From the IMG/VR virus record IMGVR_UViG_3300011008_000049, positions 64,001 through 128,000 of that record: DNA of 64,000 nt; one strand, given 5' to 3'. Shown one piece after another: positions 6,545 to 64,000 of this stretch. The notes beneath the pieces are model-generated. The model had not been told where the DNA came from, did not search any database, and saw only the letters and a program-made list of their open reading frames with translations. This DNA comes from a virus. Taxonomy: Duplodnaviria > Caudoviricetes. Within the stretch, counting starts at the first letter, position 1. Each line of letters opens with the position of its first letter. The position numbers were made by a program, and so were the translations under genes.

Positions 6545-7470
6545 GATTAACAAATAACTGGATTAACGGCGATTGCTTAAAGGAATTGAAGAAATTGCCG
6601 GATGAAAGTGTCCATCTCATTATTACATCTCCACCCTATCACAATTTGAGAGTTTATAGCAACGACCCATCAGACTTATCAAATTGTGAGACATATGAAG
6701 AATATTATTACTTACTTGGTCTTGTAATTGCCGAGTGCCAAAGAGTGCTTGTGCCAGGGGGGTAAGTTTGTAATCCAGTATGAGGATTATAATTACACAT
6801 TGGGTAGAGATGGTAGAAATGGACAGGAGAGTTTAACAGGAGATATTAACAAAATCTTTTCTGATAATGGTTTTTCGCTTTGGACGAAAGCATTTTGGAG
6901 AAAGTATTCCGCACAAAGAGCAATGTTGGCGCAGGGAAACCTTTATTACAGAAATATGAAAGCAAGAGACACTATCCTTGCCGCAAATGTAGGATTTGTT
7001 TATGTCTACAAGAAAGCCGGTGAACTTGAAGTAATTAAGGCATCTGATATTACTCTTGCTGAATGGGCTGATTGGGCGGATGGTATGTGGAATATTCCGA
7101 ACTCTGGAATTGGTCATACTACACCATTTGCAGAAGAACTTGTTAAGCGTTGCATTAAACTTTGGTCTTGTCCTGGTGATACTGTTTTAGACCCATTCGC
7201 AGGAGCAGGTACAGTTAATAAGGTAGCAATCGAAAATCATAGAAATGCAGTTGGTATCGAACTCAATAAAGAGTTCTATGACCTTGCAAATGAAAAGAGA
7301 TTTTCCGCATGGACTGATGCCGATTTGGAATGTGATGATTCTATTGAACAAATGAAAGAACGTTTTGCGGAGCAGTTGGCAATCGGTAAAGAACAGTCGG
7401 AAGCTGCAAAGGCTGAAAAGCAAGGAAGAAAGCCGAAAGAGAGGCAAAGAAAAATAATGATGGATGATAT
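6541..7470 (+). CDS. N4-C/N6-A DNA methyltransferase (beta class), interrupted by a +1 frameshift at G6-TAAG
   Basis: GDCL and ITSPPY in 6541-6765; HTTPF and VLDPFAGAGT in the +1 frame; the join restores LVPGGKF. 3' end approximate. Confidence 0.85.
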
Positions 7471-56988: not shown

Positions 56989-59900
56989 TTACCAACGATA
57001 TTTATACTTTTCAAGAGAACTCTTTCCGGCAATTCTATCAACAGTCATTGACAAAATCATCTTTTCAAATTGGTCATCCCTTTGAAGCTGTCTTACAAAA
57101 TCATTGTAATCCTCGACCTTTTCAATCGGAATGTTAATCTCAAAGTCACCGAATGTTGTTCCCATATTTCCGTTGGATGTTCTCATGGTAGCAAGAATAC
57201 CAGAAATATCAGATATTCCTTTCAAACTTGGAGTAGAACCGAAGTTATAAGAACCACCAAGAGTAATTGCCTGTGCAGACATAGCACGAAGAATATCTCT
57301 TAATGCAATGAAATTTTCAGTATCTTCCGAATTAAGAACCAATTCAGGCTTATTCGGTGTACCGTCAAGTTGAGCAAGACCAGTATAGTCAACAAGACCG
57401 CCCAACTTAAATTTCTTTATGCTATATGGAGATAAATCTTTTATGCCGTAATATCTACCAACCCACGCGCCGGAATTGACATATCCCTCTTTAATCAGTT
57501 TATTGACAATTCCTTGAACCGTATTATAATCAAATCCTTTGGCTTGTAAATTCTTCTTCCTCGTATCGCCAGTACCCCAACCGTAATTACCATTGATTAT
57601 TGCAAGTGCAACACCATAGTTTTCTTTATCGGTTCTTTTTGGAGCAGAAGATGAACTTGAACTTGAAGAACTCGGCTTGCTCGGAGTAGAAGAAGATGAT
57701 GACGGTTTGGACGGAGTTGTAGTTGAAGTAGCACTGCTCGTTGTACTTGTTGCTTCCTTATCGCTTGCAGCAACCATAGAAGCCACATTTGTTTGAATAG
57801 AATCAAGTACAGCCTTAACAGCGGTATTCTGTTCATCGAATTTATCTCCGTATTTCTGAATAGTACCATCAAGTGCGCCTGTCGAGCCATCCCAAATTGC
57901 TTGCATTTGCGGAGTTAAAGTATATCCGACATCTGCTGCTATATTTCCAAGAGTGGTGTTTATCGTATCGGAATTTGCATTTACAGTATCAATCATGTCG
58001 CCAATTAAAGCATTAACATCATCGAGTCTCTGATTAAGGATTTCCTCATATTCAGTATAAAGTTCATCAAGTAACTTCTTTTGGTCACTGATAAATTGCT
58101 CATATTCTGTTTTAGCTAAATCCTCTTGGGCTTTCGACAAATCAACCTGCAACTTCTGAACCGTTGCTCTTGTTTCTTCCGAAGTATCGCCGGAATATGC
58201 CGATAATTGTTTTTGTAAAGAAGCAATTTCTTTTGATTTATCAGCAACTTTACTTTGATAATCATATAAACTCTTTGCATTATCAAGAGATTCTTTATAG
58301 GCATCAATAAGTTCCTTCAATGCAGAAAGTTCAATCTCAATACCATTTCTAACCATATCAACAATGGCTTGTTTTTCATCCTCTGCTGATTTGATTGAAT
58401 CTTGCTGTAATCCGAGAAGTTCTTCTCTGCGGGCAATAAGGTCAGTATTATATGGGTCGTTTGCAATCTCTTTATCCAATTTCAGAATTTCTTGCGCATA
58501 CTTGTCTGCTTGCGACATATACACATTATAGTTTGCCGCGTGCAATCCCATTGTTGCAAGACCATTATTACTCAATTGACCTCTATCATCATAAAGGTCA
58601 GAATTGCTCATAAGGTCAATTAAGAAATCTGCTTCTTTTGTGATTTGAGAAATCCTGTCTTGAACATAATCGAAACGCTCCCAATTGATTTCTCTCATGG
58701 TCTTTTCGTATTCGACAAGTTGAACATTTGCTTCGGCAATACTTTCTTTGACCTCATTGATTGCCTGTTGCATTTCATACCACGCTTCGCTTCCTTCTTC
58801 AATTTCTCCGGAAGCCATTGCCTCCGAGAATTTTTGTTCAAGGGAAGAAAGTTCTTTATTCATAACAGAAATGTTTTGCTTTGTAACTTTCTGCAAAGCC
58901 TTGTAGTATTCCGTGCTTGCCATATAACCTTTGGCTTCGAGCATATCTATGCCTGTGTTATATGTATTAGTCAAATGCTCCAACAAAGATAATTGATTGT
59001 CAAAATCATCTTTAACATTATTAAAATTATCTTCATAAAGGCTTGCAAGGTTTTCATGGAGTTCCTGAATAGCATCAGCGCAATCAAGAGCCTTTTCATA
59101 CCAGTCTTGATAATCGCTTATAAGTTCAGCAGTTTCAGAATCATATTCAGAAATATCAATCGTTCCATCTTGAACCTTTTTGGCTAAATCAGAAGAAAGC
59201 CCAACAGAATTTGCTTGCTGCATATAGCGGTCATGCGCCTTTTGCTGCAAAGACAACTCTTGATTAACTTTTGTTATTTCATCATATGTAGCGCCAAGTC
59301 TCTTTTTAAGAGATTTATATGTACTTTCCGCCGTGGTTTTAAGCCTATCAATTGCACGTTCAATTCTATTGATTGCAACTTCAATCCAGTCAATAACTTT
59401 TGGTTCATCTTCTTTTGAACTATCGGACGAACCACCACTTGATGAGCCTCCGGATGAACCACCGCTCGGAGTTGTAATAACTGAACCGCTTCCTGTAATT
59501 CTTCCAGAACCTCCGGAGAATGCAGTACCTTGTGCATATGTTACGCCACGTTTCTTTCCATTAGCAATTTTGCCATTAGCAAGAATTTGTCTTGTCTGTT
59601 CTGCGTTAAAGATAATATCGTCTTTCTTATATTGGAACATTTCTGCTCCGTTGTCTCCAACAGTAAAGAATTTACCATCTCTAACAACAAGTTCTTGACC
59701 AACTTCCCCGCCTAATGCAATTCCACTATTACGAGTACCCCAATAACCACTTGAAAAAGCAGTCCCTTGCGCACGTCCACCACCAGACCAATTGATTGTT
59801 CCAGAAGCCGTAAAATGAGTTTTAACATTATATGTATTGTTATACCATTTTACTTCTCCGCGTGCAGTGTGAGATTGATTAATCCATGAAGTAACTTTAT

Positions 59901-62900
59901 CAATATTATTATCCCAAATTACAGTACCATCGGCTGTGTGTTCTTCTGCTTGATAACCCTCAATAAGAGATGCATCAAGTCCGGCTTTTACCATAAGTTC
60001 AGGAGTTATACTGTTTATGGATTCATTTAATGTGTCAACGGATGTGGCATCAATTCCAAGAGTAGCAAGTATTTCGGCATCCAACCCGGAAATTTCGGTA
60101 AGCAAACCATCACAAGCTGTTTTTGCCTCTGTTGTATCTGCACCAATAGCAGTTTGAACTTCAAGATTGTTATATGATGATTTGAATTCCTGCAACTTAC
60201 TAATGATGTTTGTAATATCATTATCGGCATTTGACGTATCTACTTTCAAAATTGCAGCATCATCAAGAGACTGTTTTCTATAAATAAGTCTTTCAATAAT
60301 AGCAATAGCATTTTCAACGTCATCTTCGTTGTATTTAACGTTTAACTCACCGTTGTCATCATATAAACTATCAAGTAAATCTTTTGCTTGACCAATTTGC
60401 TCATTTAGACTATCTAAATCTTCTGTGCCAAAATTGAAAACAATATCAGTAGCACCAATTTTAATTAATGCTTCATTTGCTTCCTCTGCGCGACTCTGAA
60501 GGTGGTCTAATTGACTGAAAATAGAATCAAGGTTAATGTCAAATCCATAATCAGACAATTTTCTCATAATCGCCTGAACAGATTCAACGTTTATTCCAAG
60601 GGCATCGGCTATTTCTTGGTCGTTGCCAACACCAAAATTAATCTCCCATGAACCATCCTCATTCATGTGCGCCCATTCAGAATTCAAGTTCTGAACATCA
60701 TGTAAGAAATTCAAACAACCATCAGAACTATCCTGGAAGTAACGAGTCATTAAACCATAACCGCTCTGGTATGCCGCTAATAATTCATCAATGTTTGCAG
60801 TTGATAAATCTTCATTGCTCATTAACTGAACGGCTGCTCTAAACTCATTAGTACCTATAAGACCTTCATCATAAAGTTCTTTGATATGTTCGAGTCCATC
60901 GGCAAGGCTGTCATACATATCACCTTCTTCACCAATGCTTTGGGCTTCTTCCCAACGCTTAAATGCGGAAGTTAAACCATCATACATTGATGCAAGTTCT
61001 GCGGTATCATTGATTTGGTCAAGAATATCTGAACGTTTCTTATATAATTCAGCACGAGAAGCCTCATCACTTGCTCCCTCGATTTGCTTTGTCAAATCAT
61101 TATATTGTTCAATAAGGTCATCAAGTGTATTTTTTATGTTGGCTTTTTCTTGCTTTTCGTAAGCAGCTTCAAGTTCTCTTAACGCTTTTGTATTAAGGTG
61201 AATACCGTTTGCTGTCTTTTCAAATAAAGTGGCTGCATCATAGTTTTCGAGGTCTTGATAGCGTGATTTAAGGTTTTTAATTGATTCTGCGGTTAAACCA
61301 GTAGAAGATACAGATTCCTTCATTGCGGAATAGAGTTTATCCATTCCATCTGTTTCTGCCTCTATATCAATTGCAAATTGAGTATTACCAACGACTTTGC
61401 CAAGTTCTAAAACAGCATCTTGGAAATTTTTAAGTGCGGTAACATCTTCATCAGTTTCCATATGACCGAATTGAGAAGCAAATGATGAAGCCATATCATT
61501 ATTCATACTTGATAACAATGATACTATTCCACTTTCTAAATTGTCGGCTTCACTTGCTAATTGTGGAAATACCTTTACGAGTTCAACAAAATCCTCGTTA
61601 CTAAAATCGCCTTTCTTTAACTTGTTTAGCGCATCTTGCAATTTACCAACATTATCAATATAATTATCAACAGAATCGGAAAATGTTTCATTATCTAATA
61701 AATCTGAAAAATTAAACTTAACTTGTGTATTTTCTACTTCTCCCTGTGCTTCTTCAACTGTTCCTCTAATATCATTGACCAAAGCATCAACAGAATCATA
61801 TTCATTTGTAAAAGATAATTGATATGCAAGATTTAATTCGTCATCTGTCAATTTATATGATTTTAGTGCATCGAAAACTAACGAAATGCCATTATCAACA
61901 TCTGGGTATATGCTTTCTGCAATCTTACTTGACAAAGATGCTAATTTTTCTTTTTCTGTTGATACAACATAATTATTATAATCATCTACCATATTACGGA
62001 GATAAGAATATAAATCATCTACATTATCAAATTGGTCATAAAAATTAGCATCAAATGTATCAATAATGGCTTTAATTTGCTTTTGAATTTCAGGCGTAAG
62101 ATTTTTATAATTATCACTTAAAAATAAATTGCTCAAATAAGCATCTACAACTGGTTTAAGGTCTGACATGGCATCATTCATTTGAGATTTGAAATCTGTT
62201 ACAATAGCTTGAACAACACCACGATTTTCTTGAATAGACCTTTTAATATAATCAAAACCACTTTCCCATGAGTCTTGCTCTAATCCAGCTTCACGAAGTG
62301 CATTAACAATCTGAACCATATAAGTAGTTCCGGTTGACGCATATTGTTGTATTGCAGCATCAAGGTCATTTGATTTAAGAATTTTTTCAAGATGATTAAT
62401 TGTTCCAGTAGTCATCTCATTACCCTTAAAGTTTGATTCTTTAAGGTCTTTCGCTTTATCCTTGAAATCTTCAAATAATGTTTTACCTTGAACCAAAACA
62501 GCACTATTGGCTGCCGCAACCATATCATTATATGCCTGCGTTAATTCTTCAACATTGCCTTTTACGGTTAATATAGCATTTCCTTGGTTGTCATATCCCT
62601 TTATTAATGATGGGAACATTTCTGCAATTTGATTACAAATATCTAAATATTCTTCATATTCATCATTTGAAAGAGATACTTCGCCAGTTGTTCTATTAAC
62701 ACCTTTTGACAATTCCTCAAATCTCGGAGCAATATCATCAAGTTTATCTTTTGTTTCATTTAATTTATCAACATTTCCTTGATAAGCCTGTGCAGCATCT
62801 CTCGCAGCTTGAAGCGCTTCTTCTTTTGCTTGCTTAATAGCAGATACAATTCGTGATATAAGTGTTATAGCAGTTAAAGCAACTGTAATAATTGCCGTAA

Positions 62901-63207
62901 TCGGATTACTTAAAAATGCAGCTTTAAGACCATTGAGGGCTGCTTTTAATGAAAGCGTAGATGTTGTTAATAATCCAGTTGATGTCGCAGCAACACCATT
63001 CGCAGCAGCATAATTGGCAGTTTGAACCATGGCAGCAGCTTGTTCTTGGCTTAACCCTCTCAACATCAAAAGCCTAATTTGTTCAGCCTCACTTAATCCT
63101 GTGGTTGCAAGTGCGGCAGCCATTTCCTCTAATTCCAAACCCTTTGTGGCTGTCGTAATGAGTTGTATATTTGTAGCGCCTTCAATTCCCAGAACTTTTA
63201 ATCGCAT
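56989..63207 (-). CDS. Tape measure protein (probable 3' exon)
   Basis: At least 2072 aa, helical and Ala-rich with a TM-like LSNPITAII segment; no SD, and in-frame stops 16-21 nt upstream of the ATG. Confidence 0.85.
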   Translation of the reverse strand: MRLKVLGIEGATNIQLITTATKGLELEEMAAALATTGLSEAEQIRLLMLRGLSQEQAAAMVQTANYAAANGVAATSTGLLTTSTLSLKAALNGLKAAFLSNPITAIITVALTAITLISRIVSAIKQAKEEALQAARDAAQAYQGNVDKLNETKDKLDDIAPRFEELSKGVNRTTGEVSLSNDEYEEYLDICNQIAEMFPSLIKGYDNQGNAILTVKGNVEELTQAYNDMVAAANSAVLVQGKTLFEDFKDKAKDLKESNFKGNEMTTGTINHLEKILKSNDLDAAIQQYASTGTTYMVQIVNALREAGLEQDSWESGFDYIKRSIQENRGVVQAIVTDFKSQMNDAMSDLKPVVDAYLSNLFLSDNYKNLTPEIQKQIKAIIDTFDANFYDQFDNVDDLYSYLRNMVDDYNNYVVSTEKEKLASLSSKIAESIYPDVDNGISLVFDALKSYKLTDDELNLAYQLSFTNEYDSVDALVNDIRGTVEEAQGEVENTQVKFNFSDLLDNETFSDSVDNYIDNVGKLQDALNKLKKGDFSNEDFVELVKVFPQLASEADNLESGIVSLLSSMNNDMASSFASQFGHMETDEDVTALKNFQDAVLELGKVVGNTQFAIDIEAETDGMDKLYSAMKESVSSTGLTAESIKNLKSRYQDLENYDAATLFEKTANGIHLNTKALRELEAAYEKQEKANIKNTLDDLIEQYNDLTKQIEGASDEASRAELYKKRSDILDQINDTAELASMYDGLTSAFKRWEEAQSIGEEGDMYDSLADGLEHIKELYDEGLIGTNEFRAAVQLMSNEDLSTANIDELLAAYQSGYGLMTRYFQDSSDGCLNFLHDVQNLNSEWAHMNEDGSWEINFGVGNDQEIADALGINVESVQAIMRKLSDYGFDINLDSIFSQLDHLQSRAEEANEALIKIGATDIVFNFGTEDLDSLNEQIGQAKDLLDSLYDDNGELNVKYNEDDVENAIAIIERLIYRKQSLDDAAILKVDTSNADNDITNIISKLQEFKSSYNNLEVQTAIGADTTEAKTACDGLLTEISGLDAEILATLGIDATSVDTLNESINSITPELMVKAGLDASLIEGYQAEEHTADGTVIWDNNIDKVTSWINQSHTARGEVKWYNNTYNVKTHFTASGTINWSGGGRAQGTAFSSGYWGTRNSGIALGGEVGQELVVRDGKFFTVGDNGAEMFQYKKDDIIFNAEQTRQILANGKIANGKKRGVTYAQGTAFSGGSGRITGSGSVITTPSGGSSGGSSSGGSSDSSKEDEPKVIDWIEVAINRIERAIDRLKTTAESTYKSLKKRLGATYDEITKVNQELSLQQKAHDRYMQQANSVGLSSDLAKKVQDGTIDISEYDSETAELISDYQDWYEKALDCADAIQELHENLASLYEDNFNNVKDDFDNQLSLLEHLTNTYNTGIDMLEAKGYMASTEYYKALQKVTKQNISVMNKELSSLEQKFSEAMASGEIEEGSEAWYEMQQAINEVKESIAEANVQLVEYEKTMREINWERFDYVQDRISQITKEADFLIDLMSNSDLYDDRGQLSNNGLATMGLHAANYNVYMSQADKYAQEILKLDKEIANDPYNTDLIARREELLGLQQDSIKSAEDEKQAIVDMVRNGIEIELSALKELIDAYKESLDNAKSLYDYQSKVADKSKEIASLQKQLSAYSGDTSEETRATVQKLQVDLSKAQEDLAKTEYEQFISDQKKLLDELYTEYEEILNQRLDDVNALIGDMIDTVNANSDTINTTLGNIAADVGYTLTPQMQAIWDGSTGALDGTIQKYGDKFDEQNTAVKAVLDSIQTNVASMVAASDKEATSTTSSATSTTTPSKPSSSSSTPSKPSSSSSSSSSAPKRTDKENYGVALAIINGNYGWGTGDTRKKNLQAKGFDYNTVQGIVNKLIKEGYVNSGAWVGRYYGIKDLSPYSIKKFKLGGLVDYTGLAQLDGTPNKPELVLNSEDTENFIALRDILRAMSAQAITLGGSYNFGSTPSLKGISDISGILATMRTSNGNMGTTFGDFEINIPIEKVEDYNDFVRQLQRDDQFEKMILSMTVDRIAGKSSLEKYKYRW

Positions 63208-63249
63208 ACAATATAAATGGCACTACTAAAAATAATTATGAAAAACCGC

Positions 63250-63278
63250 TTGACATAACATAAGAAATATGTTATAAT
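63250..63278 (+). promoter_or_regulatory. Consensus sigma-A promoter of the antisense cargo gene
   Basis: TTGACA-17bp-TATAAT with extended TG. Confidence 0.85.
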
Positions 63279-63308
63279 AAAGAAAAATCAGTATAGAGGC
63301 AGATTACA

Positions 63309-63722
63309 ATGAAAAAATACAAATGCACAAATTGCGGAAAGCAAATTGACCCTCGAAATTATCAATGTCAATTTTGTAATACTGTGCAACCATTTGAAGA
63401 TAGAGCAGTTGCATTAGGTAGGGGTCTTGTCAATATCAAATGTAATGAATGTGGATGTGATAAATCATTTTTATCACAATCAGATTATTTTGACATGACT
63501 TATTGTGCAAAATGTGGGAAAGAAACTTCATATAATGACGATGGCAAAATTAAACCACCAACGCCAACTACAAATTCTATCCAATGCCCTTACTGTAAAT
63601 CATTTAATACAAAAAAGATTCCTGGCATTTCAAAAGCCGCTGGAATTGCAACATTTGGATTATTTGCATTACCAAAAGCATCAAAACAATGGCATTGTAA
63701 TCATTGTAAAAGCGATTTTTAA
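63309..63722 (+). CDS. Multi-zinc-ribbon protein with a hydrophobic hairpin (intron cargo, moron-like)
   Basis: Six CxxC pairs; KAAGIATFGLFAL between the last two. Confidence 0.75.
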   Translation: MKKYKCTNCGKQIDPRNYQCQFCNTVQPFEDRAVALGRGLVNIKCNECGCDKSFLSQSDYFDMTYCAKCGKETSYNDDGKIKPPTPTTNSIQCPYCKSFNTKKIPGISKAAGIATFGLFALPKASKQWHCNHCKSDF

Positions 63723-64000
63723 TAAGTTATTTGTTGTACCGTCAACTTTTGGCGGTACTTTTTGTACTAATTGGAACATACATTAACAGCAAATAAAATA
63801 TAGCTTTTATTTACTGCAAGGAATGGTGTCCTCTGAACGTTCCTATCATTAAGACTTTTATCCCGACATTGCTTGCACAATTGCTACTATCGGATTATAT
63901 AGTCAAATCTTTCGACTGATAGGTGCGCTGCTCGTTATCAATTGTATATCTGTCCGGCATTATTTTTTAGCCGTAGAAATCCCACTCCCGCGTACAAAGC

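Follow-up and report, generated by a model that had tools for sequence, protein, structure and literature searches.

A tape-measure gene in two reading frames

The window analysed here is a stretch of 64,000 nucleotides, bases 64001-128000 of a 152,621-bp virus record that is estimated to be 99% complete. Its host phage is a large SPbeta-like temperate siphophage of Clostridia, with a 152-kb genome and of gut or rumen origin. At the right end of the window a minus-strand tape-measure gene is divided between two long open reading frames, the upstream of which lies past the window end in the neighbouring DNA (L001, G000 120001-136000; a window coordinate is the L001 coordinate plus 56000). This upstream frame encodes 655 residues (L001 8188-10155, corresponding to G000 128188-130155) with the C-terminus ...AAFIKNFD-stop, and it carries the tape-measure core domain (PF10145 PhageMin_Tail, E 1e-27; phrog_4211, E 5e-71). 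The second frame (56989-63207, minus strand) encodes 2072 aa, starts with MRLKVLGIEG and lies 980 nt downstream of the first. The first-pass annotation, for which only the window was at hand, had read the 2072-aa frame as the 3' exon of an intron-split tape-measure gene and expected a 5' exon beyond the window; the PhageMin_Tail frame is located there. The two coding segments are as follows.

G000 128191-130155, minus strand: predicted exon 1 of the tape-measure gene, the 655-aa frame beyond the window
56989-63204, minus strand: predicted exon 2 of the tape-measure gene, which supplies codons R656 to W2726 and the stop of the joined open frame

The 655-aa product is related to the tape-measure proteins of large temperate phages, SPbeta-like and other, that infect Bacillus, Brevibacillus, Enterocloster and Clostridioides, and in these the homologous region continues within one ORF. 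Among 40 related IMG/VR loci some have a single unbroken gene of 2000-3700 codons, and many end at the same residue as here. The break falls between two hydrophobic segments of a region that is unbroken in uninterrupted homologues, and IRFSNTLKSVN of the uninterrupted locus L010 aligns gaplessly to FIKNFD plus RLKVLG. Excision of G000 127205-128190 yields a single open frame of 2726 aa with no stop, reading GIGIAAFIKNFD-RLKVLGIEGATNIQ across the join. The ligated exons are predicted to meet at AAGAACTTCGAT/CGATTAAAAGTT, which is ...TTCGAT/CGATTA... in the DNA and ...FIKNFD-RLKVLG... in the protein. No Shine-Dalgarno sequence precedes exon 2 in the window, and an in-frame TAG TAG stands 15 nt upstream, both of which had already given the downstream frame the look of a 3' exon. 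We note that the 2072-aa frame as listed opens 3 nt before exon 2, at the AUG with which the intervening sequence terminates.

The split frame, together with the covarying fold and the splice-site pairings described below, argues that the gene is very probably interrupted by a 986-nt self-splicing group I type intron, as had been proposed. The tape measure sets tail length, and its annotation in this phage group would accordingly change from two genes and a stray ORF to one protein of about 2700 aa. Viral contigs were searched for an intron-less allele with the ligated-junction pattern ATAAARAACTTCGRTCRAYTWAA, which is a narrow pattern, and none was found; megablast and blastn searches of the region against 50,697 phage records gave no match.

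Predicted ribozyme fold and splice sites

The full intron extends on the minus strand to the window equivalent of position 64190, and its first 418 nt form the putative ribozyme. The elements that fall within the window are listed here in their 5' to 3' order on the minus strand, after the intron itself.

63205-64000, minus strand: in-window part (intron nt 191-986) of the group I type intron predicted from conservation, fold and junction mapping
63937-63986, minus strand: 3' side of the P5 domain (helices 7-9), with the P5 3' strand UGAU at 63937-63940, a hairpin CGGC...GCCG at 63955-63973 and the P5a 3' strand AGUGGG at 63981-63986
63926-63933, minus strand: Q element GAGCAGCG, the P4 3' strand (AGC) followed by the P6 5' strand (AGCG) (helix 6)
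63836-63929, minus strand: P6 and its extension, three nested helices with a GNRA-type loop (helices 10-13)
63827-63838, minus strand: R element GUUCAGAGGACA, with the P7 5' strand G-A(bulge)-GGACA at 63827-63833 (core covariation)
63818-63822, minus strand: P3 3' strand UCCUU, which pairs with AAGGA past the window end and forms a pseudoknot with P7
63786-63817, minus strand: P8 hairpin of 13 pairs (97.9% paired, four compensatory pairs)
63773-63784, minus strand: S element AAUGUAUGUUCC, with the P7 3' strand UGUUCC at 63773-63778 (helix 14, 100% paired)
63205-63205, minus strand: terminal G (omega-G), with the predicted 3' splice site between 63205 and 63204

The Q element, R with P7, the P3 3' strand, P8, S and a hairpin in the P9 position had all been recognized from the window sequence and stand at these minus-strand coordinates. 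The P element is AAAUUGCUUGAA and the R element reads GUUCAGAG-GACA; we take P, Q, R and S to resemble the classical group I consensus elements. P7 has a bulged base, and where the classical G-binding pair would stand it has G-C.

The ribozyme is better conserved among relatives than the flanking coding DNA. Between the window copy and L017, for example, the ribozyme is 82% identical, as against 58% over the final 600 nt of exon 1, and other pairs behave alike. For 11 copies RNAalifold predicts a fold of 76 pairs, and compensatory changes are seen in 30. A manual group I assignment (P1-P10, including the P3/P7 pseudoknot) has 84 pairs in which 96.3% of cells are paired, compared with 37-46% when partners are slid; compensatory changes occur in 35 of the 84, a number reached by none of 500 shuffles, and some 7 to 10 independent lineages contribute to this covariation. 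The P6-P7-P8 core is 98.4% paired in the 11 related copies (36-45% with partners slid) and has 14 compensatory pairs. P3, P7 and P8 are 98-100% paired with compensatory changes in each: one pair of P3 (helix 5, 100% paired) is G-C in six sequences and A-U in five, and the closing pair of P7 (helix 14) is G-C in seven and A-U in four. P4 is GCU/AGC, and its helix is 100% paired, with U-A in seven sequences and C-G in four; P6 is 97% paired and covaries, and across helices 10-13 pairing is 95-100% with compensatory changes at nine pairs. P5 is short and has a branched extension; compensatory changes guided its assignment by eye, and in the MAFFT alignment just 59% of its cells are paired.

Between the P7 5' strand and the P3 3' strand there are just the three bases CCA. 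The ribozyme is thus not of the IA1 or IA2 class, the usual phage type, because there is no space for P7.1/P7.2. A group II intron was rejected: the intervening sequence starts with UAACUU and not GUGYG, there is no match to domain V, and there is no reverse transcriptase.

The support from a covariance model that had been hoped for was not obtained with Rfam. The group I model RF00028 finds no match in 531 nt around the ribozyme, even at E 10, and searches of the window end, the extended locus, 11 related loci and the whole window with Rfam return no group I or group II match. In a control on T4, however, the td intron scores 40.3 bits, under the 50-bit threshold, and the nrdB intron goes unreported up to E 1. 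The model is thus insensitive to phage introns and its negative result here is weak; Rfam-based pipelines will not flag this intron.

The 5' splice site appears to be specified by two guide segments. The 5' exon always ends in U, and a U.G at the junction is invariant (11 of 11 sequences). The partner of the last three bases of the 5' exon is G(U/C/G)(C/A), some 37 nt inside the intron, and triplet and guide covary (GAU/GUC, GGU/GCC, GCU/GGC and UCU/GGA); the pair beside the U.G (helix 2, 11 sequences) is A-U in eight sequences, G-C in two and G-U in one. This P1 is short at the splice site, with 3 bp. A second guide segment, just ahead of the A-rich joiner that leads to P3, has its partner at -11 to -5 of the exon; it is in the same place in 14 of 14 sequences and also covaries (AGAACUU/AAGUUCU, AAAACUU/GAGUUUU, AGAGC/GCUCU and AAAAAUUUA/UGAAUUUUU). 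Between the two guide segments lies a P2-like hairpin with five covarying pairs. Such bipartite exon binding is unusual.

At the other end, the 3' junction was mapped in ten relatives, and in every one the intron closes with G. The two bases before it vary, such that the intron ends in AUG, UAG, UUG, ACG or AGG (AUG in the window copy and six of the ten relatives). The first-pass annotation had offered 63209 and 63205 as candidates for the terminal G; the invariant G is 63205, and P10 starts at the next base. P10 forms in its canonical position, between the start of exon 2 and the bases that adjoin the P1 guide on its 5' side. There are four contiguous pairs in the window copy (CGAU/GUCG), formed across a 570-nt tail, and 7-10 in L005, L020, L067, L064 and L068. 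This pairing also covaries (CGAU/GUCG, CAACUUAA/UUAAGUUG and CAAUUAA/UUAAUUG), and it holds though the intron ranges from 864 to 4416 nt among relatives. A single P1 with GAUGAAAGUUC and a 100-nt loop was replaced by P1 (GAU/GUC), P10 and the second segment AAGUUCU. We prefer the bipartite-guide model because it is the sole arrangement with a canonical guide order and covariation at both junctions.

Two other readings of the locus can be set against splicing. The two frames might encode separate tape-measure proteins, with the C-terminal one starting at AUG 63207 and the RNA being a non-splicing intron relic or a structure with another role. Both frames are indeed long and intact, and in six relatives, as in the window copy, the last three bases of the intervening sequence are the AUG. 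This AUG, however, has no Shine-Dalgarno sequence ahead of it, and the corresponding codon is TAG in L017, ACG in L034 and AGG in L035, so that exon 2 of these three could not start translation alone. The position of the break, within a region that is continuous in uninterrupted homologues and between its two hydrophobic segments, likewise speaks against separate proteins. So does the covariation of the guide pairings to both exons, because it matters only if the RNA acts on those junctions. We regard two separate proteins as very unlikely.

Removal or insertion at the level of DNA is scarcely credible. Here the element would be transposon-like, or excised by a recombinase through flanking CGATTAA sequences, and the phage copy would be interrupted and defective. 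CGATTAA does occur at both borders of the window copy, and the next gene upstream of the tape measure encodes a tyrosine recombinase, but the recombinase also adjoins the uninterrupted tape-measure gene of Brevibacillus phage Sundance and there is no transposase within the element. Deletion between the repeats leaves ...TTC GAT TAA AAG..., in which the stop stays in frame, and the repeat is absent in relatives (in L035, for example, CGATTGG versus GGCAACTT). Excision through CGATTAA is rejected because it does not restore the frame and because relatives lack the repeat; the covariation of the RNA would also be left unexplained. A spliced group I type intron is the reading that we adopt in what follows.

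An antisense gene in the tail of the proposed intron

The intron contains an independent gene on the opposite strand, at intron nt 469-882, between the end of the ribozyme at nt 418 and the 3' splice site at nt 986. Its parts are these.

63250-63278, plus strand: cargo promoter TTGACA-17-TATAAT (12/12 match; TG ahead of the -10), the sole perfect site in the region
63309-63722, plus strand: cargo gene of 137 aa with three CxxC...CxxC zinc ribbons, GAGG 9 nt before its ATG
63736-63758, plus strand: intrinsic terminator, a 10-bp stem followed by TTTTTGT; on the minus strand it is in the P9 position after P7

The antisense orientation and the perfect sigma-A promoter of its own accord with the first-pass annotation, as does the finding that the gene does not encode a homing nuclease. 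The hairpin in the P9 position, which had been suggested to double as the terminator of this gene, has the 10-bp stem and T tail of one and is 15 nt from the P7 strand of the ribozyme; relatives have a hairpin of other sequence at this position, preceded by a run of A on the intron strand. In the same annotation antisense transcription was thought capable of gating splicing. This is disfavoured, because the expected transcript (about 63285 to 63758) overlaps the intron tail only, and neither the core nor the splice sites.

The conserved part of the cargo protein is its last zinc ribbon (CPYCxSxNxKKI...FGxF...KQWHCNNCKSDF). An AlphaFold2 model has a pLDDT of 80, and in it a single hydrophobic stretch of about 17 residues, inside the third ribbon, is a helix of low confidence. 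A membrane hairpin had been ascribed to this protein, but its one hydrophobic stretch cannot form a transmembrane hairpin, given that the two zinc knuckles need to share one side. The N-terminus (MKKYKCTNCGK) has no signal or lipobox. Database comparisons of the protein gave only sub-threshold zinc-ribbon matches in Pfam, PHROGs of unknown function at E above 1e-3, and no match to a nuclease or RNA-binding family. Foldseek found nothing below E 0.01 among viral models, and the ESM Atlas gave generic zinc-ribbon clusters. A search of 5.8 billion proteins identified 11 relatives, none of which is named. PADLOC reported no defence family, and neither it, Pfam nor PHROG supplies a function in support of the earlier suggestion of defence or superinfection exclusion.

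Comparison of the cargo among relatives reveals both variety and constancy. The tails of L020 and L067 accommodate additional genes totalling 3.4-3.9 kb (NYN, a Zn-ribbon-YbjQ protein, a lipoprotein and unknowns). A homologous antisense zinc-ribbon gene adjoins the 3' splice site in most members, very diverged ones included, and in the metagenomic relative P0009 a homologue is again antisense between two tape-measure halves. The proposal that the intron is a neutral landing pad is partly supported, by the range of intron lengths and the extra genes that some introns carry, but not for the zinc-ribbon gene, which is not opportunistic and is retained beside the 3' splice site in most members. 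No homing endonuclease (LAGLIDADG, GIY-YIG, HNH or His-Cys box) or transposase was found in the intron, in the window copy or in the relatives examined.

This constancy, which extends even to L064, L068 and L014, raises the question of whether the zinc-ribbon protein is a partner of the intron, such as a splicing or mobility cofactor, and not an accessory gene expressed in lysogeny. The arrangement in P0009 fits such a partnership, and so does the lack of a homing endonuclease that might account for the persistence of the intron. We nevertheless think it unlikely. The gene is on the opposite strand with a host-type promoter, and its product has no match to a nuclease or RNA-binding family. Members of the family also occur outside tape-measure genes (P0011 adjoins a resolvase, and L035 has two paralogues upstream of its tape-measure gene), and in L020 it is a lipoprotein gene, in place of the zinc-ribbon gene, that adjoins the splice site.

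Known systems, proposed mechanism and distribution

Group I introns have been described in tape-measure genes of Bacillus cereus group prophages, where TMP-IVS1, IVS2 and IVS3a/b are phage-inherited, mostly without a functional homing endonuclease, and located at the best-conserved nucleotides of the host gene (Tourasse and Kolsto 2008, PMC2504315). They share with the present intron the self-splicing type and a location inside the tape-measure gene of temperate Firmicutes phages. They are assigned there to IA1 or IA2 (PMC2504315), whereas the present ribozyme lacks space for P7.1/P7.2, carries large extensions on P5 and P6, and has a two-part exon guide. The section consulted makes no mention of an independent antisense gene of the kind found here (PMC2504315).

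A similar overall layout is found in the IStrons CdISt1 of Clostridioides difficile and BcISt1 of Bacillus cereus, which have a ribozyme at the 5' end and an IS after P9, and in which splicing renders a large insertion harmless (Tourasse et al. 2014, PMC4227781). The present element is like an IStron in its 5' ribozyme, its foreign genes after P9, its distant 3' splice site and its occurrence in Firmicutes (PMC4227781). IStron ribozymes are IA2 and the cargo is an IS200/605-type or other transposase, or TnpB, by which the element moves (PMC4227781), whereas the cargo here is antisense and self-promoted, there is no transposase, and the element is fixed at one site in one gene. The present element thus combines the host gene of the Bacillus cereus TMP introns with the architecture of an IStron.

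The td, nrdB and nrdD introns of T4 are comparable in that a group I ribozyme in an essential phage gene carries a coding insert with its own expression signals. The T4 intron ORFs, though, are on the sense strand, are located in a peripheral loop and encode GIY-YIG or HNH homing nucleases, none of which occurs in the present intron or the relatives examined.

Morons are accessory genes of temperate phages that have their own promoter and terminator and are inserted between late genes. The cargo resembles them in being a single gene in the late structural region with a host-type promoter and an intrinsic terminator, oriented independently of late transcription, and by these sequence features it is a candidate moron. 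It differs in being placed inside a gene and not between genes, a position that would be tolerable in the tape-measure gene only because of the ribozyme. A literature search found no paper describing such a cargo-carrying tape-measure intron.

The favoured scenario, drawn from the sequence and its relatives, is that late in infection the tape-measure gene would be transcribed as one precursor, in which the first 418 nt of the intron would fold into the ribozyme. The two guides would hold the 5' exon, GUC pairing with GAU to place the U.G at the splice site and AAGUUCU binding the exon at -11 to -5. Once the first step is complete, the bases 5' of GUC would pair with the start of exon 2 as P10, the terminal G at 63205 would dock in the P7 pocket, and ligation of the exons would give one tape-measure protein of 2726 aa. 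The prophage may express the cargo at times when its tail genes are off, a possibility that arises because this independent opposite-strand gene has a sigma-A promoter, a Shine-Dalgarno sequence and a terminator; splicing would then remove it from the tape-measure mRNA. Both the splicing itself and the timing of expression are predictions of this scenario.

A broader and more speculative version, which we consider unlikely, is that large Clostridia phages have long kept the intron as a dedicated cargo bay. It would hold self-promoted genes, always including the zinc-ribbon gene and in some cases 3-4 kb more, that are expressed from the prophage, silenced by late tape-measure transcription and removed by splicing, and the targets of the zinc-ribbon protein would be incoming phages or else the function of the tail or tape measure. 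If so, the cargo bay would be a switch between lysogeny and lysis made from an intron, and not a selfish homing element. Whatever the role of the cargo, this appears to be a group I ribozyme lineage that persists without a homing nuclease and in which genes with promoters of their own, 0.4 to 4 kb in all, can separate the core from a 3' splice site that is nonetheless chosen exactly by P10. It would then be of use in studying intron-host mutualism, and could serve as a natural scaffold in which expression cassettes are concealed inside essential genes.

A model built from the core in this analysis (R1) finds a single copy of the ribozyme in this genome, and its matches elsewhere, in viral contigs, prophages and several Lachnospiraceae MAGs, are always at the same tape-measure site. 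The ribozymes of L064, L068 and L014 are diverged and score 42-50 bits against the model built here. Prophages bearing the ribozyme are present in Ruminococcus sp. YE282, Enterocloster lavalensis KCTC 15153, [Clostridium] asparagiforme DSM 15981 and Lacrimispora sp. HJ-01, and because these are cultured strains both splicing and the role of the cargo are directly testable.

Intervening sequences in the tape-measure gene

In several related loci the tape-measure gene carries additional interruptions within its N-terminal half, at about residues 413-504 of the query:

L006, 2554-3998
L014, 6750-8093
L022, 6381-6920
L040/L041, 4220-6001
L042, 6678-10030
L047, 6486-7873

Several of these contain sense-strand ORFs, some of which encode domains that homing endonucleases typically have (NUMOD1, I-HmuI-like) and others different DNA-binding and zinc-finger domains (DUF723/CapR, zf-FCS/TRASH). 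The tape-measure gene is thus a hot spot at which intervening elements of several kinds occur.

At the position of the group I type intron itself, the exon 1 homologue also ends, after ...GGT, in further relatives, as follows:

L009, 7887
L012, 7929
L018, 7878
L022, 7462
L028-L033, about 7240-7380
L038, 7794

The sequence that follows is different in each and has a hairpin at its start, and none matches Rfam or R1, the covariance model built from the ribozyme core of this intron lineage. Because these distinct, hairpin-opening sequences are unmatched by either, they may represent further unrecognised intron lineages that share an insertion site. With the group I model of Rfam 15, the nrdB intron of phage T4 (L078 17956-19720), which is proven by experiment, goes unreported at E up to 1, and T4 td scores below the model's gathering threshold; these misses are a caution for any scan relying on that model.

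Possible exon pairing and a probably rearranged or decaying locus

Exon 2 of this phage and its closest relatives contains AAGUUCU (within window 63185-63204), the same heptamer as the second guide segment of the intron; in more distant relatives exon 2 does not have it. Since exon 2 duplicates this heptamer, the end of exon 1 (beyond the window) and exon 2 could also pair with each other (AGAACUU/AAGUUCU).

In related locus L016 (7560-12600) what comes after the ribozyme core is not exon 2 but a gene for a tail-collar-domain protein and an IS66 transposase, and the locus has the look of a prophage that has been rearranged or is decaying.

Tape-measure C-terminal part and upstream recombinase

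Two other features were identified:

Window 57490-57610, CW_7 cell-wall-binding repeat (E 7e-12), residues 1866-1904 of the 2072-aa ORF
G000 (whole record) 130235-131296, equivalent to L001 10235-11296, minus strand, just outside the window, tyrosine recombinase gene (Phage_integrase, SAM-like N domain)

The CW_7 repeat lies towards the C terminus of the tape-measure protein and follows a long Ser/Thr/Pro-rich linker. The recombinase gene is directly upstream of the tape-measure gene, an odd location for an integrase, and Brevibacillus phage Sundance shares this arrangement.
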